NCBI GenBank assembly: GCA_016791465.1
Contig: JAEUWE010000216.1
Location: forward strand, 1-17,589
Source: Pseudobdellovibrionaceae bacterium
GTDB taxonomy: Bacteria > Bdellovibrionota > Bdellovibrionia > Bdellovibrionales > JAMPXM01
Direction: 5' to 3'
Length of the DNA: 17,589 bases
Shown here: positions 33-8,008 of the stretch, one piece after another
How positions within the stretch are numbered: the stretch's first letter is position 1
Layout: every line of letters starts with the position of its first letter
Program-made: the position numbers and the translations under genes
The notes under the pieces: generated by a model
Told to the model about the DNA's origin: nothing
Database searches by the model: none
Seen by the model: the letters and a program-made list of their open reading frames with translations, nothing else

Positions 33-767
33 TCACGCAGCCTCATCAATGGGTGGTTGATCTGAGCGTTCGGCCGAAATGTCTAGGCTTCCTAGCCAGA
101 ATGCTCGGTGTGGAGCGGATGTTGCGACGTCGCGAATCATCTTATCCAATTGCAGATCGGCCATTGTCCAAGAGTAAACAATGGCCGGTGGCTGTGAGTG
201 GGCAAGTAGTATGAGGCGGTCATTTGCTCTCGTTCGAAAGCTATTGACTGAAACATTCACATTGCTATCGAGTCCTAGAAGTTGTCCAGGAAGAGGCGTC
301 AGTGGTGTTCCGTTTTTTTGCTCCGAACAATCGAGAGAGAGATCGGTTTTCGACTCAAGGGAAAGCAGAGTTTGATTCTTTCGTGCGAGGAGGACGTTGG
401 GGCCGCCAACCTGAACCCAGCAAAGCTCGTTGCCCGATAAGGTGAGAGCAAGTAGCTCGACGCCGACGTGGTATTCGTCGCGGTTGTCCTCTCGATAGAG
501 CATATCGTTAGCGAGGAGAGCTGCAATGCGTAGATTGTTTGCGGCATCAGAAAGGCATGAAAGTTTCGGCAATGGCGAAGTTGCCTCCTTGTCCTGGGAT
601 GCGAATGCCAGGAATTCCAAGACACGGTCGATCACCTTCCTTGCGCCCGATCGAGGGCCCCATGGAACTGCGACGATGAGTGTATTGAGCGACGCTTCGA
701 AGTGAACTTCGGGTGTCGGGCGAGGCTGTTTTCCAGAATAAGGCCGATGCTGAAAATCGAACTTCAT
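33..767 (-). CDS. PP2C-like protein, probably catalytically inactive (pseudophosphatase candidate); last gene of the FHA operon
   Basis: 244-aa ORF. Its ATG (767-765) overlaps the upstream stop by 4 nt (ATGA). By-eye alignment to bacterial PP2C (PrpC/Stp type) is colinear. LIVAVPWGPRSG sits where xxVADGMGGH is expected. VGVELLALTLSGNELCWVQVGGPNVLL sits where MGTTxVxxxxxGxxxxxAHVGDSRxYL is expected. DRLILLAHSQ sits where GDxLLLCSDGL is expected. The metal-binding Asp positions are not conserved. Confidence 0.55.
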   Translation of the reverse strand: MKFDFQHRPYSGKQPRPTPEVHFEASLNTLIVAVPWGPRSGARKVIDRVLEFLAFASQDKEATSPLPKLSCLSDAANNLRIAALLANDMLYREDNRDEYHVGVELLALTLSGNELCWVQVGGPNVLLARKNQTLLSLESKTDLSLDCSEQKNGTPLTPLPGQLLGLDSNVNVSVNSFRTRANDRLILLAHSQPPAIVYSWTMADLQLDKMIRDVATSAPHRAFWLGSLDISAERSDQPPIDEAA

Positions 768-2770
768 GTGCCCTGATCCGAATAGTTGCGAAGTTTCATT
801 TTAGACTTCAGATAGTATTCACCATCCGTCGTATCGCGATCCATGATTTGTCGCCACTTGCTCTGTGCTTCCTTCACTTGTCCAACGCCTTCATAGAGAA
901 TGGCGTCTTCGTACAGCGTACGCAGTTGTGAATTGAGTTCTTTCCTTACGCGAGCAATAAACTCCGCAGCCTTCTCGCTCTTTGGATCAAACTCTTTGGC
1001 GCGTCTTGCGCCCTCGAGGGCGTCTTTGAAGTTTCGACTCTGGTAGGCCGCGTTGGCCGACGCGAGTGCTTCATCGACTTTTGTTGCAAGCATTGACTTA
1101 ATTTTTACAATATTTTGCTGAGAGCGTGTTTTGAGTCCATCGGGATCCGGCATTTGCGATGCGATGTGCTTATTGAACGCGTCGATTGCCGGATACCACT
1201 GACCTTGTCGTTGTAGGGCAAGGGCTTTCTCATGAAGCTCGCGACCGCGATCAACTTTGTCTTGGTAGTCGCGATGTGCTGAGAGCTTTGATGTGCGTTC
1301 GCCAACTCGTTTTTCGACCCGACCGATCAAATCGATAACCAGGGGATTGGTGGGATCGAGTCCGATCGTGGGCGAAAGACACTGACGAATCTCATCGACA
1401 CTAAATGTGCGGTTGGCGATTGGATTGCATTGTTGAATATTGCGATCGATGATGCGTTTTTGTTCTTCCACACGTTTCTGTTCGGCCTCAATGAAGGCTA
1501 ATTTCTCGGCGTTGGCGCGCTGAGCGAGGCAGTCCTCCTCCATTGTCTTTGATCCTTCGTAACCTTCCGGTAGAATTTCGTGGAGTTTTTTGAGCTGCTC
1601 GTAGGCGTTCTCAAACTTGCCTTGCATGTAGAGATTGCGAGCTGTGACATAGATCTCTTTAATAGTCTGCTTTTGCTGTGCGGAGAGTCGCTCAATTCCG
1701 TTTCCGGGATCGTTTGTCTTGCTGCTCTTGTTGTCGGAGTCAGGGCCAAAAGCGGCATAGAGTCCGATGACCGCAATCGCAAGAATTGCGGCCAGACGGA
1801 TGGTTTTCGCTTTCGAGTTTTTCTTACTGCTGTCGGCTGACCATTCGGCCCCATAGTTGTCGATGCGAACCGCGCCGCCAGGTCCTTGTAGGACGGGATA
1901 GTTGATCATCTCGTACTGAGCGACCGGAGCGAGTGGTGCCGCGAGCACGTTTGGCGCAATCGCGACTAGGCGCTTTTCAAAATTCGGATCACGAACCTCA
2001 AAGTGGACCTTCAAGGCATTGACTGAAAGAACGTCACCGCTTTGTAGGAGGTGGGGTTCTTCGGGAATCAAAGGCGTGCCGTTGAGAACGGTGCCATTGG
2101 CGCTTCCGAGATCGGTGACAAAGTATCCTTCAGGAGTCGATGTGATCTCAAACTGTCGTCGACTTGCCTTACGGTCCGGAAGAAAGATGTCGCAAGTGTC
2201 CTCGCGCCCGGCGAGCCACTTCTTTCCATCAAGATCGATGCGCTGTTCACTTCCGCTGCTTTTCACAATTCGAATCGAAGGCCGTCCTGGGAGCGAAACG
2301 CCGACGTTGGTGGCATCATCATTTCCCTCAAATGAGGGCTGTGGATGTTGTGGCGCCGGAACCAGCGAGAGTGTGCCGCCAGGATGAGCGGGAGGCGCCG
2401 ACGGGGCGTCGTCAGCGAAGTTCTCAGCGCCGACGGCGGCAGACCGGCTGGTCGGAACTGCGGCAGAAATCGCGGACGACTCTTCGACGATACGGAAGTC
2501 ATAAGCCGCGACGTTGAAGACACTTGTTGGCGTGAGCTCAACCTCAGCCGTCGCTTGGCCAGCAACAATGATTTCACCGAACTTCGATAGAACGGAGGCC
2601 TTCCAGACGCCGTCGATTTCGGCGACTTTAAAGTGCTGTCGGGAGATTCCAGGTTGTTCTTGTAATTGGATGGCGCAACCATCGGCACGTCCGATGATGT
2701 ACTCCTCGCCAGAGCGCAACTGGATCGAAGCGATTTCCTTACCATGGAGAAAGGCTTTGAGGATTGGCAT
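764..2770 (-). CDS. Dual-FHA, single-pass membrane protein with a large C-terminal (predicted periplasmic) TPR-like helical-repeat domain
   Basis: 668 aa. FHA1 is about aa 1-95 (IIGRADGCAIQL...GISRQHFKV). A Pro/Ala-rich linker follows. FHA2 is about aa 165-260 (LAGREDTCDIFL...ASRRQFEI...DLGSANGTVLNGTPL). The TM segment is about aa 324-342 (IRLAAILAIAVIGLYAAFG). Helical repeats come next (ARNLYMQGKFENAYEQLKKL; ALALQRQGQWYPAIDAFNKH; AYQSRNFKDALEGARRAKEFDP). The ATG overlaps the upstream stop by 1 nt (TAATG). Confidence 0.85.
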   Translation of the reverse strand: MPILKAFLHGKEIASIQLRSGEEYIIGRADGCAIQLQEQPGISRQHFKVAEIDGVWKASVLSKFGEIIVAGQATAEVELTPTSVFNVAAYDFRIVEESSAISAAVPTSRSAAVGAENFADDAPSAPPAHPGGTLSLVPAPQHPQPSFEGNDDATNVGVSLPGRPSIRIVKSSGSEQRIDLDGKKWLAGREDTCDIFLPDRKASRRQFEITSTPEGYFVTDLGSANGTVLNGTPLIPEEPHLLQSGDVLSVNALKVHFEVRDPNFEKRLVAIAPNVLAAPLAPVAQYEMINYPVLQGPGGAVRIDNYGAEWSADSSKKNSKAKTIRLAAILAIAVIGLYAAFGPDSDNKSSKTNDPGNGIERLSAQQKQTIKEIYVTARNLYMQGKFENAYEQLKKLHEILPEGYEGSKTMEEDCLAQRANAEKLAFIEAEQKRVEEQKRIIDRNIQQCNPIANRTFSVDEIRQCLSPTIGLDPTNPLVIDLIGRVEKRVGERTSKLSAHRDYQDKVDRGRELHEKALALQRQGQWYPAIDAFNKHIASQMPDPDGLKTRSQQNIVKIKSMLATKVDEALASANAAYQSRNFKDALEGARRAKEFDPKSEKAAEFIARVRKELNSQLRTLYEDAILYEGVGQVKEAQSKWRQIMDRDTTDGEYYLKSKMKLRNYSDQGT

Positions 2771-3744
2771 TAGAACCGCCCCTCTTGAAGCACGTCACAT
2801 TCTTTCTTCATTGCCTCAGCCTGCTTGTACTTAAGGTCCTCTTTGTTGTTCATAAGTAAAAGCGCTTTCTCGAGCGCCGATGAACAGCGAGCGTACATAT
2901 TTTTTTCGAGATAGCGACGCCCTTCGAGCGTGAGTTGTGTTACGGACTCGTCGCGCTGTTTCTCGGCCAGCCTGTAGTAGCGAAGTGCAAGCTGATGTTC
3001 GGGGTCGATTGCTCGAGCCGTTTCAAAAGATCTCATTGCTCGTGAGTAGCTACCTTTTTGATAGTCACGAAAGCCTTCGAGATAATGTCGCTGGGCCTCT
3101 TCGTATCGGGTTTTCTCTTCCTCGGTTCTAAAGGTTCTCTTTTTTGCGGCCGTTGCGGTGCGGGCGTCGCTTTCAGAGATTTCTTTCTCGATTTCAGAAG
3201 TCGTCTTAAGCCCCTTATCGAGTTTTCTCGAAGTGCTGTCGGACATTCCAATATAGACCATGCCGCCGATGATTCCGGTCATGATGAGGTAGAACATACC
3301 TTTGCCGGATTTCTGAGGTCGGACGTTCTTGACTTGCGGTGTGGCGGAGTTCGCCGCGCCGCCCATAACCGAAAGTGATGGAACACCGGGAACGGCCTGT
3401 GGAGCAAGAAGATGCATGGCTTCGACAATGAAGGCGAGTTCTGACTCGCCGATGCGAATCATATCTCCGCCTTTGAGCGGCTGCTGCTCAGCATGCCGGC
3501 CGTTGACGGTCAGCTTTGCTTTACCACTAATGTCGTGAATAGTGATTTCTTCGGGAGTGAATTCGATCACGGCCGCATTTCGGCTCACGCGCGGGTCGTT
3601 GAGAACGACATTGTTCGATGTTGGATCACGGCCGATTGTGACTCTCGGAGGCAAAAGCTGATAGGTCGCGCCAGCATCGGGGCCACCGCGAACAGCAATT
3701 GTGAATTTGAATCCCGTACGAGGGATCGCCGGAGCCAAAGTCAC
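2770..3744 (-). CDS. FHA-domain single-pass membrane protein with a C-terminal TPR-like domain; shorter paralogue-like version of the 668-aa protein
   Basis: 324 aa with a GTG start at 3744. The SD GGAGGG is formed by the last codons of the upstream gene, 9 nt spacing. FHA is about aa 12-107 (VTIGRDPTSNNVVLNDPRVSRNAAVIEF...LTVNG...GDMIRIGESELAF). TM is about aa 149-167 (MFYLIMTGIIGGMVYIGM). TPR-like helices follow (YLEGFRDYQKGSYSRAMRSFETARAIDPEH). Confidence 0.8.
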   Translation of the reverse strand: MTLAPAIPRTGFKFTIAVRGGPDAGATYQLLPPRVTIGRDPTSNNVVLNDPRVSRNAAVIEFTPEEITIHDISGKAKLTVNGRHAEQQPLKGGDMIRIGESELAFIVEAMHLLAPQAVPGVPSLSVMGGAANSATPQVKNVRPQKSGKGMFYLIMTGIIGGMVYIGMSDSTSRKLDKGLKTTSEIEKEISESDARTATAAKKRTFRTEEEKTRYEEAQRHYLEGFRDYQKGSYSRAMRSFETARAIDPEHQLALRYYRLAEKQRDESVTQLTLEGRRYLEKNMYARCSSALEKALLLMNNKEDLKYKQAEAMKKECDVLQEGRF

Positions 3745-3750
3745 TACCGT

Positions 3751-5430
3751 TTACCCTCCACTTCTTTGCAGCACGACCAAATACCAACCGGCTTCGCCCG
3801 AGTGATTGAGAACGGCTTGGCCATTGATTTCATATTTCTCACCAGAGAAAGGGATCTCGCTAAAGGCAATTGATCCCATCTGTTCGCGCATTCGCGGAAG
3901 CAGTTCACGCAAGTTCGCTTGGAGCGCTGGATCTGGAACTTCGTTTACAGATCGACCAACGAGAGCACCTGCTGATCCGATGAGATGATCGAAAGCACTA
4001 TTAGTTGCGATGACGCGATCGTCGATGGCATTGATACTCAGTGCGGGAGTGTTCAACATGCGAACGACATTTGAGGCCTCGATGTCTCGATTGATGACAC
4101 CGCCACTGACGCCCCCGAATGCCTGGCCGCTGCCATTGGCGGCGCGGTTCAGCGCCGAGTTCACATTCGAAATCAGCTTTTCAAGCAGTGGATACTGATA
4201 GGGAGTTGCTAGATCATCGCGCCCTTCGCGAAGGGCATCGTTGAGCTGCGTGCTGAGCAGTTCGACTGGATGTTCGACGACACGGCTGAGAAAGAAAAAG
4301 AGAACACCGCCGAGCAGAGCTGCGACAAGGAAGATTTGCAGAAAGAGTCCCATGGTCTGTGCAGGACTCATCGCCATCGATCCCATGTCGTATAGAACGA
4401 CAGAATAGGCGGCGGCCTCTTGTGAGCCGGTGTCGGGATTGTAGCGCGAGATGGGAACCGCAACACCAAGTGTTGAGTCGCCTGTGAATCCATCGGTTTC
4501 TCGCTCTTCGCGTCGCGCTTGATTAACAAAAGGCATTTTGGCGAACTCGCCACGTTTATTGGCGGGCGCGAGAATTGTTCCGTCTTTATTGATGATAACG
4601 GCCGTTGATACGCCTTCTTCAAGTTCGGCCAGTCGAACTGTGACCGCCACCTCGTTTTTCTCAAGGATGGCTTGGCGGTTGATAGCGGCGAGGTTGCGGG
4701 CAATTGTTTTTGCCCGACGGATGCTTTCTTGGCGAATGCTCGACTTGGTCAAGGTCACCATCGGAATCGTCGCGACAAACGTCAATACAACGGCATAAAT
4801 AGCAATCAGAAGGAGTAGGCCCTGACGGTAATTCATGCGTTGAATAAGACTGTAAATCCCAGGCATAGCGACGTGATCAAGATAGAGTCGCAGATTCTCG
4901 AGTAGATCGAAGAGAGCGTTTCCGCTCGAAGCCACTCGGGGACGTGCATCATGTTCGACTTCAGCATGGACTTCTTGGGCGACCTGCGCGCTGGGATCTG
5001 GATAGGCTTGCGCAGCCATCGGATGCTGTTGAACGGGCATGGCGAGGGCGCCATTGCCAGCCCACGCCGGCATCGGGGCAAGACCATTCTGCATGTTTTG
5101 AACATGACGAGGATCAACTCCGGCCGGAAGCTTCAGAATATCAATAATGAGGTCATGAAATGTGAGCTTGTCTCCGGCTTGTAACTTTTGATTTTGAACG
5201 CGAAGACCATTAACGAACGTGCCGTTGCGTGAATTCATGTCGGTGATAATGACTTTACCATCGTCGGTGACAAGAACGGTCGCATGCTCTTTAGAAACTG
5301 CATTCGAGGCCAGTTTGATCTGACAGTTTGGGCTGCGGCCGATGACGTTGTATCCCACAGTGAGCGGCATGATTTGTCCGGCCTGTGGTCCGCTGAGGAC
5401 TCGGATGGCCCAGGTTTCACGACTCGACAT
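3751..5430 (-). CDS. FHA-domain two-pass membrane sensor-like protein (FHA / TM / periplasmic domain / TM / HAMP-like helix / PAS-like C-terminus) with no kinase or other recognisable output domain
   Basis: 559 aa. SD AGGAG lies 9 nt upstream of the ATG at 5430. A canonical FHA is at aa 6-100 (VIGRSPNCQIKL...AVSKEHATV...DMNSRNGTFVNG). A Pro/Gln/Ala low-complexity linker follows. TM1 is about aa 204-226, a loop of about 130 aa spans 227-358, and TM2 is about aa 359-381. An amphipathic HAMP-like segment covers 382-430. The C-terminal alpha/beta region 445-556 resembles PAS (ALSINAIDDRVIATNSAFDHLIGSAGALVGRSV...YEINGQAVLN...GWYLVVLQ). Confidence 0.8.
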   Translation of the reverse strand: MSSRETWAIRVLSGPQAGQIMPLTVGYNVIGRSPNCQIKLASNAVSKEHATVLVTDDGKVIITDMNSRNGTFVNGLRVQNQKLQAGDKLTFHDLIIDILKLPAGVDPRHVQNMQNGLAPMPAWAGNGALAMPVQQHPMAAQAYPDPSAQVAQEVHAEVEHDARPRVASSGNALFDLLENLRLYLDHVAMPGIYSLIQRMNYRQGLLLLIAIYAVVLTFVATIPMVTLTKSSIRQESIRRAKTIARNLAAINRQAILEKNEVAVTVRLAELEEGVSTAVIINKDGTILAPANKRGEFAKMPFVNQARREERETDGFTGDSTLGVAVPISRYNPDTGSQEAAAYSVVLYDMGSMAMSPAQTMGLFLQIFLVAALLGGVLFFFLSRVVEHPVELLSTQLNDALREGRDDLATPYQYPLLEKLISNVNSALNRAANGSGQAFGGVSGGVINRDIEASNVVRMLNTPALSINAIDDRVIATNSAFDHLIGSAGALVGRSVNEVPDPALQANLRELLPRMREQMGSIAFSEIPFSGEKYEINGQAVLNHSGEAGWYLVVLQRSGG

Positions 5431-5755
5431 AGAGTTGATCTCCTGGGTTGAGGGTTAGGGGCAGAGTGCCGGCCGCAACTTCAATGACGCTTGTGGCTTT
5501 GAGACGTGGCAACGTTACTCTCCATGGCGGCAAATTGCGGTAGACGTGAATAACGTGCAGCGAGCTATCGACAAAGACGGCGTCGATGGCGAATCGCATA
5601 AACCAAGTGTGGATTGAGTTGCAGCGTTTGATCCAGAGACCTTGATTTTCGGGTAACGAGGCGCGGCCGAGCAGACCCTTGCTTCGTTGTGCAAATGAGC
5701 TTGCGACTTCGAGTTCGCTCACGACCACGGTGCCATTGTGGAGAAGGCGCATCAC
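5417..5755 (-). CDS. DUF192 / UPF0127 (COG1430) family protein
   Basis: 112 aa. Family-typical motifs are present: A..F.QRSKGLLGR..L....GLWI..CNSIHTWFMRFAIDAVFVD...V......LPPWR......A..VIEV.AG......PGD. The start is either GTG 5755 (4-nt overlap with the tadC-like stop) or ATG 5752 (1-nt overlap, TGATG). Confidence 0.8.
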   Translation of the reverse strand: MMRLLHNGTVVVSELEVASSFAQRSKGLLGRASLPENQGLWIKRCNSIHTWFMRFAIDAVFVDSSLHVIHVYRNLPPWRVTLPRLKATSVIEVAAGTLPLTLNPGDQLYVES

Positions 5756-6657
5756 TGTCCACCTCCATAAATAAACTGCAGCGCAACCGGTGCGAAGACC
5801 ATGATGAAAACGGCCGGCAAGATAAACACGACGAGTGGAATCAGAATCTTCTGCGAAGCTTTGGCTCCTTCTTTTTCTGCGCGCACAAATCGCTCAAGAC
5901 GCATCTGTGCTGATTGATCCTTTAAGACGCGTGCGATGCTGACGCCGGTTGCATCAGAGTCGATCACGACGTTGACCAGTGACTTGATCTCGGGGACATC
6001 GCATCGATTGTCGAGGCCGCGCAGAGCTTCGGCTCTGGAGCTGCCGAGAGTGATGTCGCGCAAGACCTGGTTGAACTCGCCAGCCAAGACGCTGTCGGCG
6101 TTTGCCTTTTCAACAATAGCCTGAATGGCGCCTTGGAAGTCTTTTCCGGCTTCAACGGCAAGCGCCATGAGATCAACAAAGAACGGTAGCTCGGTGATCA
6201 TCGAGCTCTGGCGGTCAGAGCGCATTTTCTTTGCGTGCGAGTCCGGCATACCCCAGCCAATCAATGCGAAAAACAAAAATACGGGCACGGGATAGTTCAA
6301 CTGTAAGGCAAAGTTCAGCACGAGAGCGATGATCGGGAGCACGACACCCCAGAGCAATTTTAGTCCAATGAATTCGTCGACGTTGAGCTCGGCGGTGAGA
6401 CCTGACGTGATGAGCTTGTGTTCAATTTTTTTGCGCCACCGCGGATCTTTAAAGCGAACGGCATAGTGAATTGTAAATTGATGAACGAGCGATCTTGAGA
6501 TCTCAATGAGTTTCGACTTGGATTTTTCTGGTGCATTGCCCGAGGCCCAGGACAGCGCTTGCATTCCTTCGTCCTTCGCAAGCAGCGACGAGACAAAGAA
6601 ATACACCGACACACCTGTGACAAGGATGAGGACCATCGGTAGTAAATCACTTCCCAT
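5752..6657 (-). CDS. TadB/TadC-family (type II secretion system F domain) pilus-assembly platform protein; first gene of the operon
   Basis: About 301 aa. It has an N-terminal TM, a central TM pair, and a T2SSF-type helical domain (ELPFFVDLMALAVEAGKDFQGAIQAIVEKA...LGSSRAEALRGLDNRC.VPEIKSLVNVVIDSDATGVSIARVLKDQSAQMRLERF..AEKEGAKASQKILIPLVVFILPAVFIMVFAP). The track start at 6660 is TTG. I prefer ATG at 6657, which has SD GGAAGG 6 nt upstream. Confidence 0.8.
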   Translation of the reverse strand: MGSDLLPMVLILVTGVSVYFFVSSLLAKDEGMQALSWASGNAPEKSKSKLIEISRSLVHQFTIHYAVRFKDPRWRKKIEHKLITSGLTAELNVDEFIGLKLLWGVVLPIIALVLNFALQLNYPVPVFLFFALIGWGMPDSHAKKMRSDRQSSMITELPFFVDLMALAVEAGKDFQGAIQAIVEKANADSVLAGEFNQVLRDITLGSSRAEALRGLDNRCDVPEIKSLVNVVIDSDATGVSIARVLKDQSAQMRLERFVRAEKEGAKASQKILIPLVVFILPAVFIMVFAPVALQFIYGGGQ

Positions 6658-6685
6658 CAATCACCTTCCGTGATGTAAGAGAGAC

Positions 6686-8008
6686 ATGAATGTTCGCAGT
6701 CTCGTTTTGGCATCGCAGTCGCCACGTCGAAGACAAATCCTTTCGTTGGCAGGGTTCGAGTTCGACATCCTCCCTTCTCAAATATCGGAAATTCCCGATG
6801 AAAACCTGAATCTGGCGCAGCAAATTCGACAGCTGGCTCATGACAAGGCCGAGGCCTGTCTCAAAATGAGAAAGCCATTGAAAGGACAGGGGGTTTTGAT
6901 CCTTGCGGCCGACACGATGGTGGCCTTGGCTGGCCAAACATTGGGCAAGCCGAAGGACGAGAATCAAGCGCGTCAATTTCTTAAGCAGCTCTCTGGCCAG
7001 ACTCATGTCGTGCTCACTGGACTTTCGCTCTATGACGTCGACACGGATACCTGGGCTGAGTCTGTTGTCGAAACCAAGGTGTATTTTCGCGAGCTGACGG
7101 CTCAAGAAATCGAGCACTATGTTCGTTCGGGTGATCCGATGGACAAGGCTGGTGGCTATGGTATTCAGGGCGAAGCCGGCGCTTTCGTTCAGCGAATTGA
7201 AGGGCCGTTCGATAATGTCGTTGGACTTCCTATCGACGAGTTGAAACGTCTGCTTGTCGAGAATCGATGGCAGATTCGCAGGCGAGTTTCATCGGTACAA
7301 GAAGGTCTCCTCAGTATCCGCCAACAGATTTCGAACGCCTGCATCCAATTTCATCGGGCGCCGTCGAGCGTGAAGCTGATCGCGGTTTCGAAGACGAAAT
7401 CTGCGGAAGCCGTGATGGAGGCGGTCTTGGCGGATCAGCTGGAGTTTGGTGAGAACTACGCTCAAGAGGCTGTGGATAAGCAAGTGGAGATTGCACAGTT
7501 GCAGCAGATCGCCGGTATCGACCGAAAAGTGAATTGGCACTTTATCGGTGGTCTCCAAAGCAAGAAGGTCAAGGCGGTCGTTGGGTCGTTCGTGTTGATT
7601 CATTCTGTCGACCGCGAATCATTGGTTTTAGAAATTGAAAAGCGCGCGGCCGAAAAGGAGATAGTGCAGGACATTTTGCTTCAGGTGAATATAGCGAACG
7701 AAGAGACAAAGTCGGGAGCGAGTGTTCAGGATTTTACCTCGCTTGTCGACCTGGCTGCTCGTCAGTCTCACATTCGAATCTGCGGTATTATGGCACTGCC
7801 ACCGCTGGTTGAAGACGAGGTGTTGGCGCGCCGGCAGTTTGCTGAAGTTCGCGCCGTTTTTGAGTTGGCCAAGCGTCGTCTTTCAATCGAGCAACAGCGG
7901 TCTTTCACCGAAATGTCGATGGGAACAACGCATGACTTTGCGGCCGCCATTGCAGAGGGCGCGACGATGGTTCGTGTGGGGACGGCGATCTTCGGAGCTC
8001 GGCAGTAG
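6686..8008 (+). CDS. maf-yggS: Fusion protein: Maf-family nucleoside-triphosphate pyrophosphatase (N-terminal, about aa 1-190) plus YggS/YlmE-family PLP-binding protein (C-terminal, about aa 200-440)
   Basis: Single uninterrupted 440-aa frame. Maf motifs: LASQSPRRRQIL, AADTMVALAGQTLGKPKDENQARQFLKQLSGQTHVVLTG, DKAGGYGIQGEAGAFVQRIEGPFDNVVGLP. YggS motifs: VKLIAVSKTKSAEAV (PLP Lys), FGENYAQEA, WHFIGGLQSKKVK, IHSVD, LLQVNIANEETKSG, MSMGTTHDFAAAIAEGATMVRVGTAIFGAR. Confidence 0.9.
   Translation: MNVRSLVLASQSPRRRQILSLAGFEFDILPSQISEIPDENLNLAQQIRQLAHDKAEACLKMRKPLKGQGVLILAADTMVALAGQTLGKPKDENQARQFLKQLSGQTHVVLTGLSLYDVDTDTWAESVVETKVYFRELTAQEIEHYVRSGDPMDKAGGYGIQGEAGAFVQRIEGPFDNVVGLPIDELKRLLVENRWQIRRRVSSVQEGLLSIRQQISNACIQFHRAPSSVKLIAVSKTKSAEAVMEAVLADQLEFGENYAQEAVDKQVEIAQLQQIAGIDRKVNWHFIGGLQSKKVKAVVGSFVLIHSVDRESLVLEIEKRAAEKEIVQDILLQVNIANEETKSGASVQDFTSLVDLAARQSHIRICGIMALPPLVEDEVLARRQFAEVRAVFELAKRRLSIEQQRSFTEMSMGTTHDFAAAIAEGATMVRVGTAIFGARQ

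Follow-up and report, generated by a model that had tools for sequence, protein, structure and literature searches.

P0001, a 559-aa protein encoded on the minus strand (3751..5430) of the window (the whole 17,589-nt stretch of a Pseudobdellovibrionaceae contig that was analysed; all features below lie on that strand), probably serves the predatory Tad/Kil type IVc pilus of Bdellovibrionota as a signalling adaptor, bitopic (N-in, C-in) in the inner membrane, a reading that we hold with moderate confidence. Structural models support the description of this protein as the input half of a sensor kinase that bears an FHA domain and lacks the transmitter, and its output is best read as a predicted pThr-dependent docking. 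An earlier note on this DNA had described the same transmitter-less layout as a free-standing oddity; the layout stood, whereas the isolation did not, since P0001 is a single-copy member of a tadC operon occurring across the phylum. The subject bears on how Bdellovibrio-like predators sense prey engagement and switch from attachment to invasion, a step for which the Tad/Kil pilus is essential. FHA proteins of kil/tad clusters are often named as signalling candidates and, to our knowledge, none has been dissected. P0001 thus offers a concrete sensor candidate, near-universal in the sampled phylum, single-copy and fixed to tadC, which would combine a ligand-binding-type extracytoplasmic domain wired across the membrane with a strictly conserved pThr pocket.

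The order of parts first read from the letters alone (FHA, linker, TM1, a loop of ~130 aa, TM2 and a PAS-like end) was recovered by Pfam, Kyte-Doolittle hydropathy and AF2 modelling. The FHA domain (aa 6-101; 5128..5415), delimited with Pfam and Foldseek, has a canonical pThr pocket (G31, R32, S46, H49, S67, N69 and G70) carried by the signatures GR (31-32), S46-K-E-H49 and S67-R-N-G70, just where the earlier note had placed them. Indeed, Pfam FHA (PF00498) matched aa 29-91 with an E-value of 3.9e-18 and 66.1 bits against a cut-off of 20.7, as well as 66/66 relatives. Among these 66 relatives, which share 27-60% identity, the only fully invariant columns were those of the FHA signatures together with D64, G75, P223 and P289; to judge from this alignment, the pThr pocket appears to be under the strongest selection within P0001. 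By inspection, no other FHA domain of the locus is fully canonical, as had been claimed, since those of the two downstream proteins deviate from these signatures (SRNA and SGKAK in P0002; SKFG in the first and SRRQ in the second FHA of P0003). Foldseek aligned the P0001 domain with the FHA domains of FhaA, GarA, OdhI and DgcB at TM 0.85-0.91, the Bdellovibrio DgcB domain (6hc0/6hc1) lying at TM 0.85, and with YscD 4a0e at TM 0.74. In addition, the NCBIfam models of EspA and FhaB gave partial matches on this domain.

The FHA domain is followed by a disordered low-complexity linker (aa 102-170; 4921..5127), with pLDDT below 50 at aa 111-165 and a motif P-x-W-A-G-N-x-A (aa 121-128) conserved in closer relatives only, and then by a cytoplasmic juxtamembrane helix (aa 171-200; 4831..4920), delimited by AF2 and the alignment, in which Y183 and V-A-M-P-G-V-Y (187-193) are near-invariant. 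In the model, the FHA domain hangs from TM1 through a flexible tether of ~70 residues. The two-TM arrangement corresponds to the only two Kyte-Doolittle peaks of the protein, at 204-222 (2.64) and 362-380 (2.58), and AF2 draws an unbroken helix at 201-250 through TM1 (aa 201-227; 4750..4830), which holds the invariant P223, and another at 356-402 through TM2 (aa 359-382; 4285..4356). Note that the residues just past TM1 are rich in K/R (6/18), which the positive-inside rule would not predict for a loop in the periplasm.

The loop between the two membrane segments (aa 228-358; 4357..4749), which the earlier note had taken by eye for a PDC/Cache-like domain beginning with a long helix and continuing into strands, was modelled by AF2 (pLDDT 85, pTM 0.79) as a long helix and two strands followed by a further helix and three strands. 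Its best Foldseek matches were CitA 2j80/1p0z (TM 0.65-0.70) and DcuS 3by8 (TM 0.62), both with probability 1.00, followed by KinD and Cache chemoreceptor domains. Thus, the long N-terminal helix, the five-stranded antiparallel sheet interrupted by a helix and the placement between two TMs all point to a periplasmic PDC or single-Cache-like fold. At the sequence level, Pfam sCache_3_2 stayed under its cut-off on P0001 (20.9 bits against 28.4; E 4e-4), and a Cache model reached E<=0.01 in only 1-2/66 relatives. The highest conservation of this domain lies in D-G-T-I-L-A-P-A-N-K-R-G (283-294), and the conserved DGTILAPANKRG segment would come after strand 2, at the position of the major loop of CitA. 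A PilO/GspM-type alignment-protein fold was also considered for this domain and rejected, being absent from its top 50 Foldseek matches.

Past TM2, a HAMP-like helix-connector-helix (aa 383-438; 4117..4284; AF2 helices 356-402 and 414-438) agrees with HAMP in position, length and helix-loop-helix shape and carries a near-invariant P388 (97% conserved) together with an A-L-R-E-G-R-D-D motif. The resemblance previously noticed is one of shape and position. At the sequence level, no match to Pfam HAMP (PF00672) with E<=10 occurred among 10 fragments of the family, and a six-frame search of the genome with the same model missed this segment but found 4 true HAMPs elsewhere. When aligned with hhalign to these four own-genome HAMPs, the segment was colinear over 52 columns but weakly so (P 0.002, probability 14%). 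Therefore, we call it HAMP-like only and regard it as the weak point of the modelled architecture.

The C-terminal domain (aa 448-556; 3763..4089) has in the AF2 model the PAS topology of two strands, helices and three strands (E463-467, E472-476, H478-484, H501-516, E522-528, E531-541 and E547-556, with pLDDT 84-93), in agreement with the PAS-like end first proposed. Pfam PAS, PAS_9 and PAS_4 matched 16, 14 and 8 of the 66 relatives, respectively (E<=0.01; best E 7e-6), and the best PAS-clan score of P0001 itself was PAS_4 at E 0.067, under the cut-off. Against PDB sequences, the full-length family profile matched FHA domains only, and the profile of the HAMP-PAS region gave no match. Because the HAMP-like segment lacks sequence support and the HAMP-PAS profile has no PDB match, we infer signal transmission in P0001 from fold and position only. 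In this respect, the best PDB match of the full-length AF2 model was WalK 9a5d_A (Foldseek; 388 columns, E 1.6e-12), in an alignment that covers both the HAMP-like and the PAS regions.

This layout is widely kept. Gaps are nearly absent across relatives (<=1% of cells) from the blocks of the periplasmic domain, TM2, the HAMP-like segment and the PAS domain, the length of the family is steady (~510-650 aa, in the 150 representative clusters listed and in 286/301 sampled genomes), and the gene occurs in single copy per genome with a match in 286 of the 301 sampled genomes of the phylum, many of them closed. The whole architecture is therefore under purifying selection. Even one genome scored as without match (G051) has tadC-DUF192 followed by a diverged gene of 525 aa with this same layout. 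In a pattern scan of genome contigs, which is dominated by the FHA pattern, the full-length loci returned were only 8, each belonging to Bdellovibrionales or Pseudobdellovibrionaceae. A phyletic argument from joint loss of the sensor gene and tadC was considered and set aside as uninformative, since tadC was retained in 22/22 genomes tested.

The gene of P0001 is the third of an operon ordered tadC(kilH)-DUF192-P0001 gene-FHA/TM/TPR-2xFHA/TM/TPR-PP2C-like, an order shared by every examined locus whose flanks were long enough, with identities as low as 31%. Upstream lie P0006, a TadC/KilH-type T2SSF platform protein (5752..6660; Pfam T2SSF E 8e-14), and P0005, a DUF192 protein (5417..5755; Pfam DUF192 E 2.6e-19) whose 3′ end shares 14 nt with the beginning of the P0001 gene; downstream lie P0002 (2770..3744; 324 aa, FHA-TM-TPR, Bd0473-like), P0003 (764..2770; 668 aa, 2xFHA-TM-TPR, Bd0474-like) and P0004 (33..767; 244 aa, PP2C-like, Bd0475-like), the last operon gene within the window. 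The gene of P0001 is, from this layout, most likely co-transcribed and translationally coupled with its neighbours. P0004 has no Pfam match, and its family profile aligned 154 positions colinearly with the PP2C tPphA (2j82; E 3e-4); since it seems by eye to lack the metal-binding Asp residues, a working phosphorylation cycle inside the operon is not evident. No kinase gene occurs within or adjoining the operon, and five Hanks kinase (Pkinase) genes are found elsewhere in the genome.

By gene order and sizes, the operon would correspond to Bd0470-Bd0475 of B. bacteriovorus, which form one operon (PMC12034629), and P0001, by its position in the operon and the gene sizes, to Bd0472. In the order shared with HD100, TadC is followed by a small protein and then by two FHA proteins, the second of ~370-390 aa, after which come a 2xFHA+TPR protein (~670 aa) and a last protein of ~230-245 aa (PMC12034629). 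The published work on this operon covers Bd0470, Bd0473, Bd0474 and Bd0475 and names Bd0472 as an operon member. Bd0470 is orthologous to KilH (PMC8460266, supplementary file 2); the Bd0470::tn mutant does not attach, and the Bd0474::tn mutant attaches to prey that are neither killed nor rounded (PMC6561027). It was also reported that kil clusters are enriched in FHA proteins, proposed as contact-signalling parts (PMC8460266, PMC12428579), and that the TadC gene is separate from the other tad genes and adjoins FHA/TPR/PAS genes (bioRxiv 10.64898/2026.07.08.737194). By synteny with the kilH/tadC orthologue, the gene of P0001 would be an accessory member of the Tad/Kil gene set, and across the sampled genomes it appears to be a near-universal partner of tadC in the phylum.

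In the mechanism that we propose, P0001 would probably be a dimer, like its kinase relatives. In the envelope or periplasm, its PDC domain may read prey contact, a ligand derived from the prey or the pilus platform's own state, and its PAS domain may read a cytoplasmic cue. The resulting conformational change would switch the partners held by P0001, and not drive phosphotransfer. The FHA domain would dock on a partner phosphorylated at Thr, which may be a Hanks kinase or one of its substrates, and Tad components would be recruited or released at the invasive pole, thereby gating pilus assembly or a post-attachment step. More generally, P0001 exemplifies a histidine-kinase input module in which a predicted phosphopeptide reader takes the place of the transmitter, and two-component-style sensing would thereby be linked to Hanks-kinase signalling with no enzyme in the protein itself. 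A more specific version, which we offer tentatively and consider unlikely as a whole, makes P0001 the candidate receptor for prey contact or envelope cues in BALO predators: a new type of kinase-less transmembrane sensor whose sole output is a conformationally gated FHA-pThr docking and which, with the two FHA-TM-TPR proteins and the PP2C pseudophosphatase, would form a pThr-reading switch licensing the Tad pilus for invasion.

Since its gene occurs once per genome throughout the phylum, within the tadC (kilH) operon and beside genes of FHA-TM-TPR and PP2C-like proteins, P0001 may be a machine-associated scaffold as much as a sensor. Its main role would then be structural, as a Tad/Kil basal-body subunit of the inner membrane that scaffolds or aligns the machine in the manner of SctD (YscD/PrgH) or GltG; the PDC, HAMP-like and PAS folds would be re-used as protein-protein interfaces and not as signal receivers, and the FHA domain would anchor cytoplasmic parts (TadA/TadZ) with phosphorylation optional. 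The strict synteny and the translational coupling with the platform protein TadC argue for such a role, as do the two further FHA-TM proteins of an operon without kinase, and single copy with near-universal presence suits a core machine part. Pfam Yop-YscD_cpl also matched the FHA region at E 5e-14, and NCBIfam SctD (TIGR02500; 32 bits, cut-off 86) and GltG (50 bits, cut-off 650) gave partial matches there, far under their cut-offs. Moreover, the Myxococcus gene after kilH encodes an FHA, single-TM, periplasmic-domain protein without sensor modules, annotated as PrgH-like (PMC8460266, supplementary file 1).

The fold evidence points the other way. The periplasmic domain resembles those of ligand-binding sensors (CitA, DcuS, KinD and Cache chemoreceptors), no ring-building or PilO/GspM-type fold occurs among its top 50 Foldseek matches, and TM2 followed by a helical hairpin and a PAS domain is a standard transmembrane signalling wire. 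FHA-like domains of SctD proteins are typically without the pThr residues, whereas these residues are the most conserved positions of P0001. The two roles are compatible with each other; as the main role, we judge the structural one rather unlikely.

Quite improbable, in our view, is a split two-component sensor, in which the PAS/HAMP-like end would control in trans a histidine kinase, soluble or membrane-bound, or a diguanylate cyclase (e.g., the FHA-GGDEF protein DgcB) encoded at another locus, and the FHA domain would be a second, Ser/Thr-kinase-dependent input. This is suggested by the colinearity of the module with WalK up to the start of the DHp, by the place of the DgcB FHA among the close structural matches, and by the histidine-kinase and PilZ genes reported near other B. 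bacteriovorus tad loci (bioRxiv 10.64898/2026.07.08.737194, section 5). Nevertheless, no kinase or cyclase was linked to the gene at any examined locus, and no fused version occurred in the 150 representative clusters listed.

The frame of P0001 runs from an ATG at 5430, with AGGAG 9 nt on its 5′ side, to a TAA at 3751-3753, only 3 residues beyond the PAS fold, and GGAGGG lies within the final codons, ahead of the GTG of P0002 (3744). Neither Pfam nor NCBIfam matched HisKA or HATPase_c in P0001, and no catalytic output, be it DHp/CA, GGDEF, MCP or another, is present in the protein. The same C-terminal endpoint was found, to within a few residues, in all of the best 150 of 492 representative clusters and in the open frames of the 286/301 sampled same-phylum genomes with a match, and none of these relatives is longer than the P0001 layout; a 997-aa open frame in one genome (G177) proved to be an upstream read-through and not a fusion. 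A lost output domain, or the frameshift at the 3′ end that the earlier note had named as the possible flaw, is therefore excluded because several hundred full-length relatives stop at the same residue, in agreement with the layout of RBS and stop. We thus give practically no credence to a sensor kinase that is cut short or in decay, or to an artefact of assembly or frameshift, without function of its own: the MAG that holds the window is fragmented (518 contigs, 88% complete), but equal-length colinear relatives recur in the sampled genomes, many of them closed, the domain blocks are nearly gap-free, and the downstream gene has its own RBS and FHA domain.

Compared with known systems, P0001 shares with the WalK (YycG) and CitA/DcuS kinases the order TM1, extracytoplasmic PDC/sCache, TM2, hairpin at the HAMP position and PAS, and differs from them in its N-terminal FHA and tether. 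WalK keeps the DHp/CA transmitter, whereas P0001 is without DHp (HisKA) and catalytic ATPase because it stops after the PAS domain; sequence similarity to WalK is undetectable (NCBIfam WalK E 0.0066, with a cut-off of 725 bits), and no cognate response regulator lies near the gene. DgcB of Bdellovibrio (FHA-GGDEF), EspA of Myxococcus (FHA-PAS-HK) and FipA/FhaB Rv0019c have, like P0001, an N-terminal canonical pThr-binding FHA. However, DgcB and EspA end in an enzyme, a GGDEF domain or a kinase, where P0001 has sensor modules and no such output, and FipA lacks the sensor modules that P0001 has.

SctD (YscD/PrgH) and GltG resemble P0001 in their cytoplasmic N-terminal FHA fold, linker, TM, periplasmic domain and setting among genes of a trans-envelope machine. 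They cross the membrane once and do not come back into the cytoplasm with HAMP/PAS modules, in contrast to the two TMs of P0001, and the periplasmic part of SctD is made of ring-building motifs where P0001 has a PDC. In Myxococcus (MXAN_4648/4649), FHA membrane proteins directly follow kilH, as in the operon of P0001; the kilH neighbour of M. vastator has 484 aa, one TM and no PDC, HAMP or PAS, and was rejected as an orthologue for this other architecture. The best FHA match in M. vastator, an unrelated FHA-DUF4388 gene, was likewise rejected, and among the 49 FHA places found by the family HMM in that genome, 0 reached into the sensor part.

Finally, the proposed logic resembles by analogy the PpkA/PppA/Fha1 threonine-phosphorylation trigger of type VI secretion, a comparison already made for kil clusters (PMC8460266). 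In that system, Fha1/TagH with PpkA-PppA is an FHA protein that couples Ser/Thr phosphorylation to the assembly or firing of an envelope-spanning machine in response to contact or an envelope cue, with a PP2C-type gene alongside. In contrast, the operon of P0001 has no linked kinase and its PP2C-like gene looks catalytically degenerate, and NCBIfam TagH gave 33 bits on P0001 against a cut-off of 120. Furthermore, Fha1 is soluble and leaves sensing to the separate TagQRST and PpkA, whereas P0001 unites sensor modules and FHA domain in one polypeptide.

The 559-aa protein P0001 is encoded at 3751-5430 on the reverse strand in an uninterrupted frame, which starts at an ATG (5430) with AGGAG 9 nt upstream and stops at a TAA (3751-3753). 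The start codon falls within the final codons of the upstream DUF192 gene, and the last codons of P0001 contain a GGAGGG that serves as the ribosome-binding site for the GTG of the next gene at 3744. A homologue search with P0001 returned 234 relatives, the best 120 of which measure ~535-577 aa with 95-100% query coverage, save one 369-aa fragment. In addition, a library-wide phmmer search restricted to aa 171-559 gave 492 clusters of representatives; in the best 150, the match stops at most a few residues short of the C-terminus, and, obvious fragments aside, the proteins have ~470-590 aa. Since relatives have a like length and the same C-terminal end, and no kinase, cyclase or MCP module occurs in any of those listed, P0001 can be neither a truncated product nor an artefact; the earlier note's claim that no output domain follows the PAS-like region thus holds, and a 3′ frameshift is ruled out as its cause. 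Across the phylum, the sensor part is present in 286 of 301 sampled genomes (249 of 257 high-quality ones), as a single copy in nearly all matching genomes and in open frames of ~470-650 aa. A 997-aa frame in one genome, considered as a fusion, was rejected as upstream read-through. One genome scored negative keeps tadC and has, in the same slot, a diverged 525-aa gene with the FHA/TM/loop/TM/C-terminal layout.

The only Pfam domain above threshold in P0001 is FHA (aa 29-91, E 3.9e-18); sCache_3_2 (aa 228-296, 20.9 bits vs a cut-off of 28.4) and PAS_4 (aa 470-525, E 0.067) remain sub-threshold. The full-length AlphaFold2 model, built on 48 relatives (mean pLDDT 80), comprises an FHA sandwich (aa 6-101), a disordered linker (aa 111-165, pLDDT <50), a juxtamembrane helix (aa 172-197), TM1 continuous with a periplasmic helix (aa 201-250), a periplasmic alpha/beta domain (strands at aa 274-281, 285-288, 312-315, 320-330 and 337-348; helix at 300-308), TM2 running on into a cytoplasmic helix (aa 356-402), a second helix after a loop in the HAMP position (aa 414-438) and a two-strand, helices, three-strand PAS topology (aa 448-556). 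In the PDB, the whole model comes closest to the WalK histidine kinase (9a5d_A, 388 aligned columns, E 1.6e-12), and the NCBIfam WalK model also matches aa 205-396, very weakly. Modelled separately on 21 sequences from fetched loci (pLDDT 85, pTM 0.79), the periplasmic part (aa 226-360) best matches the CitA citrate sensor domain (2j80 and 1p0z, TM 0.65-0.70), then DcuS (3by8, TM 0.62), KinD and the ligand-binding domains of Cache-type chemoreceptors. The loop and C-terminus, called PDC/Cache-like by eye and PAS-like, respectively, in the earlier note, are therefore confirmed at the fold level; PAS, PAS_9 and PAS_4 matches in 16, 14 and 8 of 66 diverse family members (E<=0.01; best E 7e-6) add sequence support for the PAS fold.

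The HAMP label is the weakest one. Position, length, helix-loop-helix shape and a near-invariant Pro388 agree with it; however, Pfam HAMP matched none of ten family fragments at E<=10, and a six-frame search of the genome found four genuine HAMPs elsewhere and missed this segment. Aligned with these four by hhalign, the family segment was colinear over 52 columns, weakly (P 0.002, probability 14%), and a profile of the HAMP-PAS half matched no PDB sequence, so that we call the segment HAMP-like and nothing stronger. Hydropathy gives exactly two TM segments (aa 204-222 and 362-380), as the earlier note had proposed. Because FHA and PAS domains are cytoplasmic by nature, and given the homology to WalK and CitA, we infer an N-in/C-in topology. 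Note as a caveat that the first 18 residues past TM1, on the predicted periplasmic side (aa 228-245; 4696-4749, reverse strand), hold 6 Lys/Arg against only 1-2 on the cytoplasmic flanks, contrary to the positive-inside rule.

Among 66 relatives with 27-60% identity, the fully invariant columns are only G31, R32, S46, H49, D64, S67, N69, G70, G75, P223 and P289, i.e., the FHA pThr-binding signature and two prolines, located in TM1 and the periplasmic domain, respectively. Conservation is moderate in the periplasmic, TM2, HAMP-like and PAS blocks, where gaps make up at most 1% of cells, and the FHA-to-TM1 linker is unconserved. Within this otherwise disordered linker, a short motif (P-M-P-A-W-A-G-N-x-A, aa 119-130; 5041-5076, reverse strand), modelled as a short helix, is nearly invariant in relatives above 46% identity, distant ones keeping G-N-x-A, and may be a docking motif.

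P0001 is the third of six reverse-strand genes, after a T2SSF/TadC-like platform protein (5752-6660) and the DUF192 protein (5417-5755), and before P0002 (FHA-TM-TPR, 324 aa, 2770-3744), P0003 (2xFHA-TM-TPR, 668 aa, 764-2770) and P0004 (PP2C-like and Bd0475-like, 244 aa, 33-767). Their overlaps and short gaps imply translational coupling, and all fetched loci whose flanks are long enough share this order, even where the sensor part is only 31% identical. Within 764-3744 (reverse strand), the P0002 FHA is off-canonical (SRNA, SGKAK), and in P0003 the first FHA has SKFG and the second SRRQ with SANG kept; P0001 is thus the sole strictly canonical pThr reader of the operon, as had been noticed earlier. 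Pfam found no match in P0004, and a profile of 13 relatives matches the bacterial PP2C phosphatase tPphA (2j82, 2y09; E 3e-4, 154 colinear positions). By eye, P0004 has PWG in place of DGMGG and AHS in place of SDG, the usual metal-binding Asp motifs, which makes it a candidate pseudophosphatase. Beside the operon, a 440-aa forward-strand ORF (6686-8008), whose start lies ~28 nt from the divergent tadC-like start, joins Maf (Pfam, aa 6-191) to YggS/PLP-binding Ala_racemase_N (aa 224-439); these are separate genes (194 and 251 aa) in a syntenic locus, and the fusion therefore appears lineage-specific. The 156-aa ORF P0007 (6647-7117, reverse strand), antisense within maf-yggS and overlapping the tadC-like start region, is unlikely to be a gene.

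Judging from operon position and gene sizes, P0001 is probably the counterpart of Bd0472 of B. bacteriovorus HD100, where Bd0470-Bd0475 form a single operon, the 674-aa Bd0474 (two FHA domains, TPR) has Bd0075 as two-hybrid partner, and an interaction is predicted for Bd0473 and Bd0475 (PMC12034629). Transposon mutants of Bd0470 (tadC) fail to attach, and Bd0474 mutants attach but neither kill nor round prey (PMC6561027). Bd0470 is orthologous to KilH of the Tad-like Kil killing apparatus of Myxococcus, whose kil clusters are rich in FHA proteins proposed to make up a cascade for contact signalling (PMC8460266 supplementary files 1 and 2; PMC12428579). A 2026 preprint merely mentions that tadC lies apart from other tad genes, adjoining FHA, TPR and PAS-domain genes (bioRxiv 10.64898/2026.07.08.737194). 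The family is already in databases as 'FHA domain-containing protein', and for Bd0472 we found nothing in the Bdellovibrio literature beyond operon membership.

The earlier observation is confirmed and its architecture supported; coupling of sensing to pThr binding is a proposal. P0001 would dimerise, relay a signal from the PDC domain across TM2 and the hairpin into PAS, and respond by pThr-dependent partner binding of the tethered FHA. The genome has five Hanks-type kinases, none near the operon. We consider a signalling adaptor gating the Tad/Kil machine the most likely role, with somewhat better than even confidence. By analogy with SctD or GltG, P0001 could instead, or also, be largely a structural basal-body scaffold, to which we give about one chance in four. 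Partial NCBIfam matches confined to the FHA region include both (with FhaB/FipA, EspA and TagH), and YscD is among the remaining top PDB matches of the model, all FHA domains (FhaA, GarA/OdhI, Bdellovibrio DgcB FHA; TM 0.7-0.9); no pilus alignment-protein fold (PilO/GspM) appeared within the top 50 PDB matches of the periplasmic model. A partnership in trans with a kinase or cyclase encoded elsewhere is conceivable, unsupported and improbable. Within an operon already linked to predation by genetics, P0001 is the most plausible candidate for a receptor-like part.

Among the genomes examined, the FHA-plus-sensor fusion occurs only in Bdellovibrionota; full-length matches listed in a species-representative scan are all from Bdellovibrionales and Pseudobdellovibrionaceae MAGs. 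In the Myxococcus vastator genome, the family HMM matched 49 FHA domains, none reaching into the sensor part. The gene that directly follows the kilH orthologue there (locus L094, 110-1564, reverse strand) codes for a 484-aa protein in which a linker joins a canonical FHA to the single TM, followed by a beta-rich domain in the periplasm and a helical part at the C-terminus. By position, this protein is the counterpart of the FHA membrane proteins of Bdellovibrionota, but its extracytoplasmic part differs, and it lacks a second TM, HAMP and PAS. In its logic, the proposed adaptor resembles the PpkA/PppA/Fha1 pathway that type VI secretion uses, with the difference that sensor and reader are fused. 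P0001 combines two known kinds of protein, the input modules of sensor kinases and the FHA adaptors of envelope machines.
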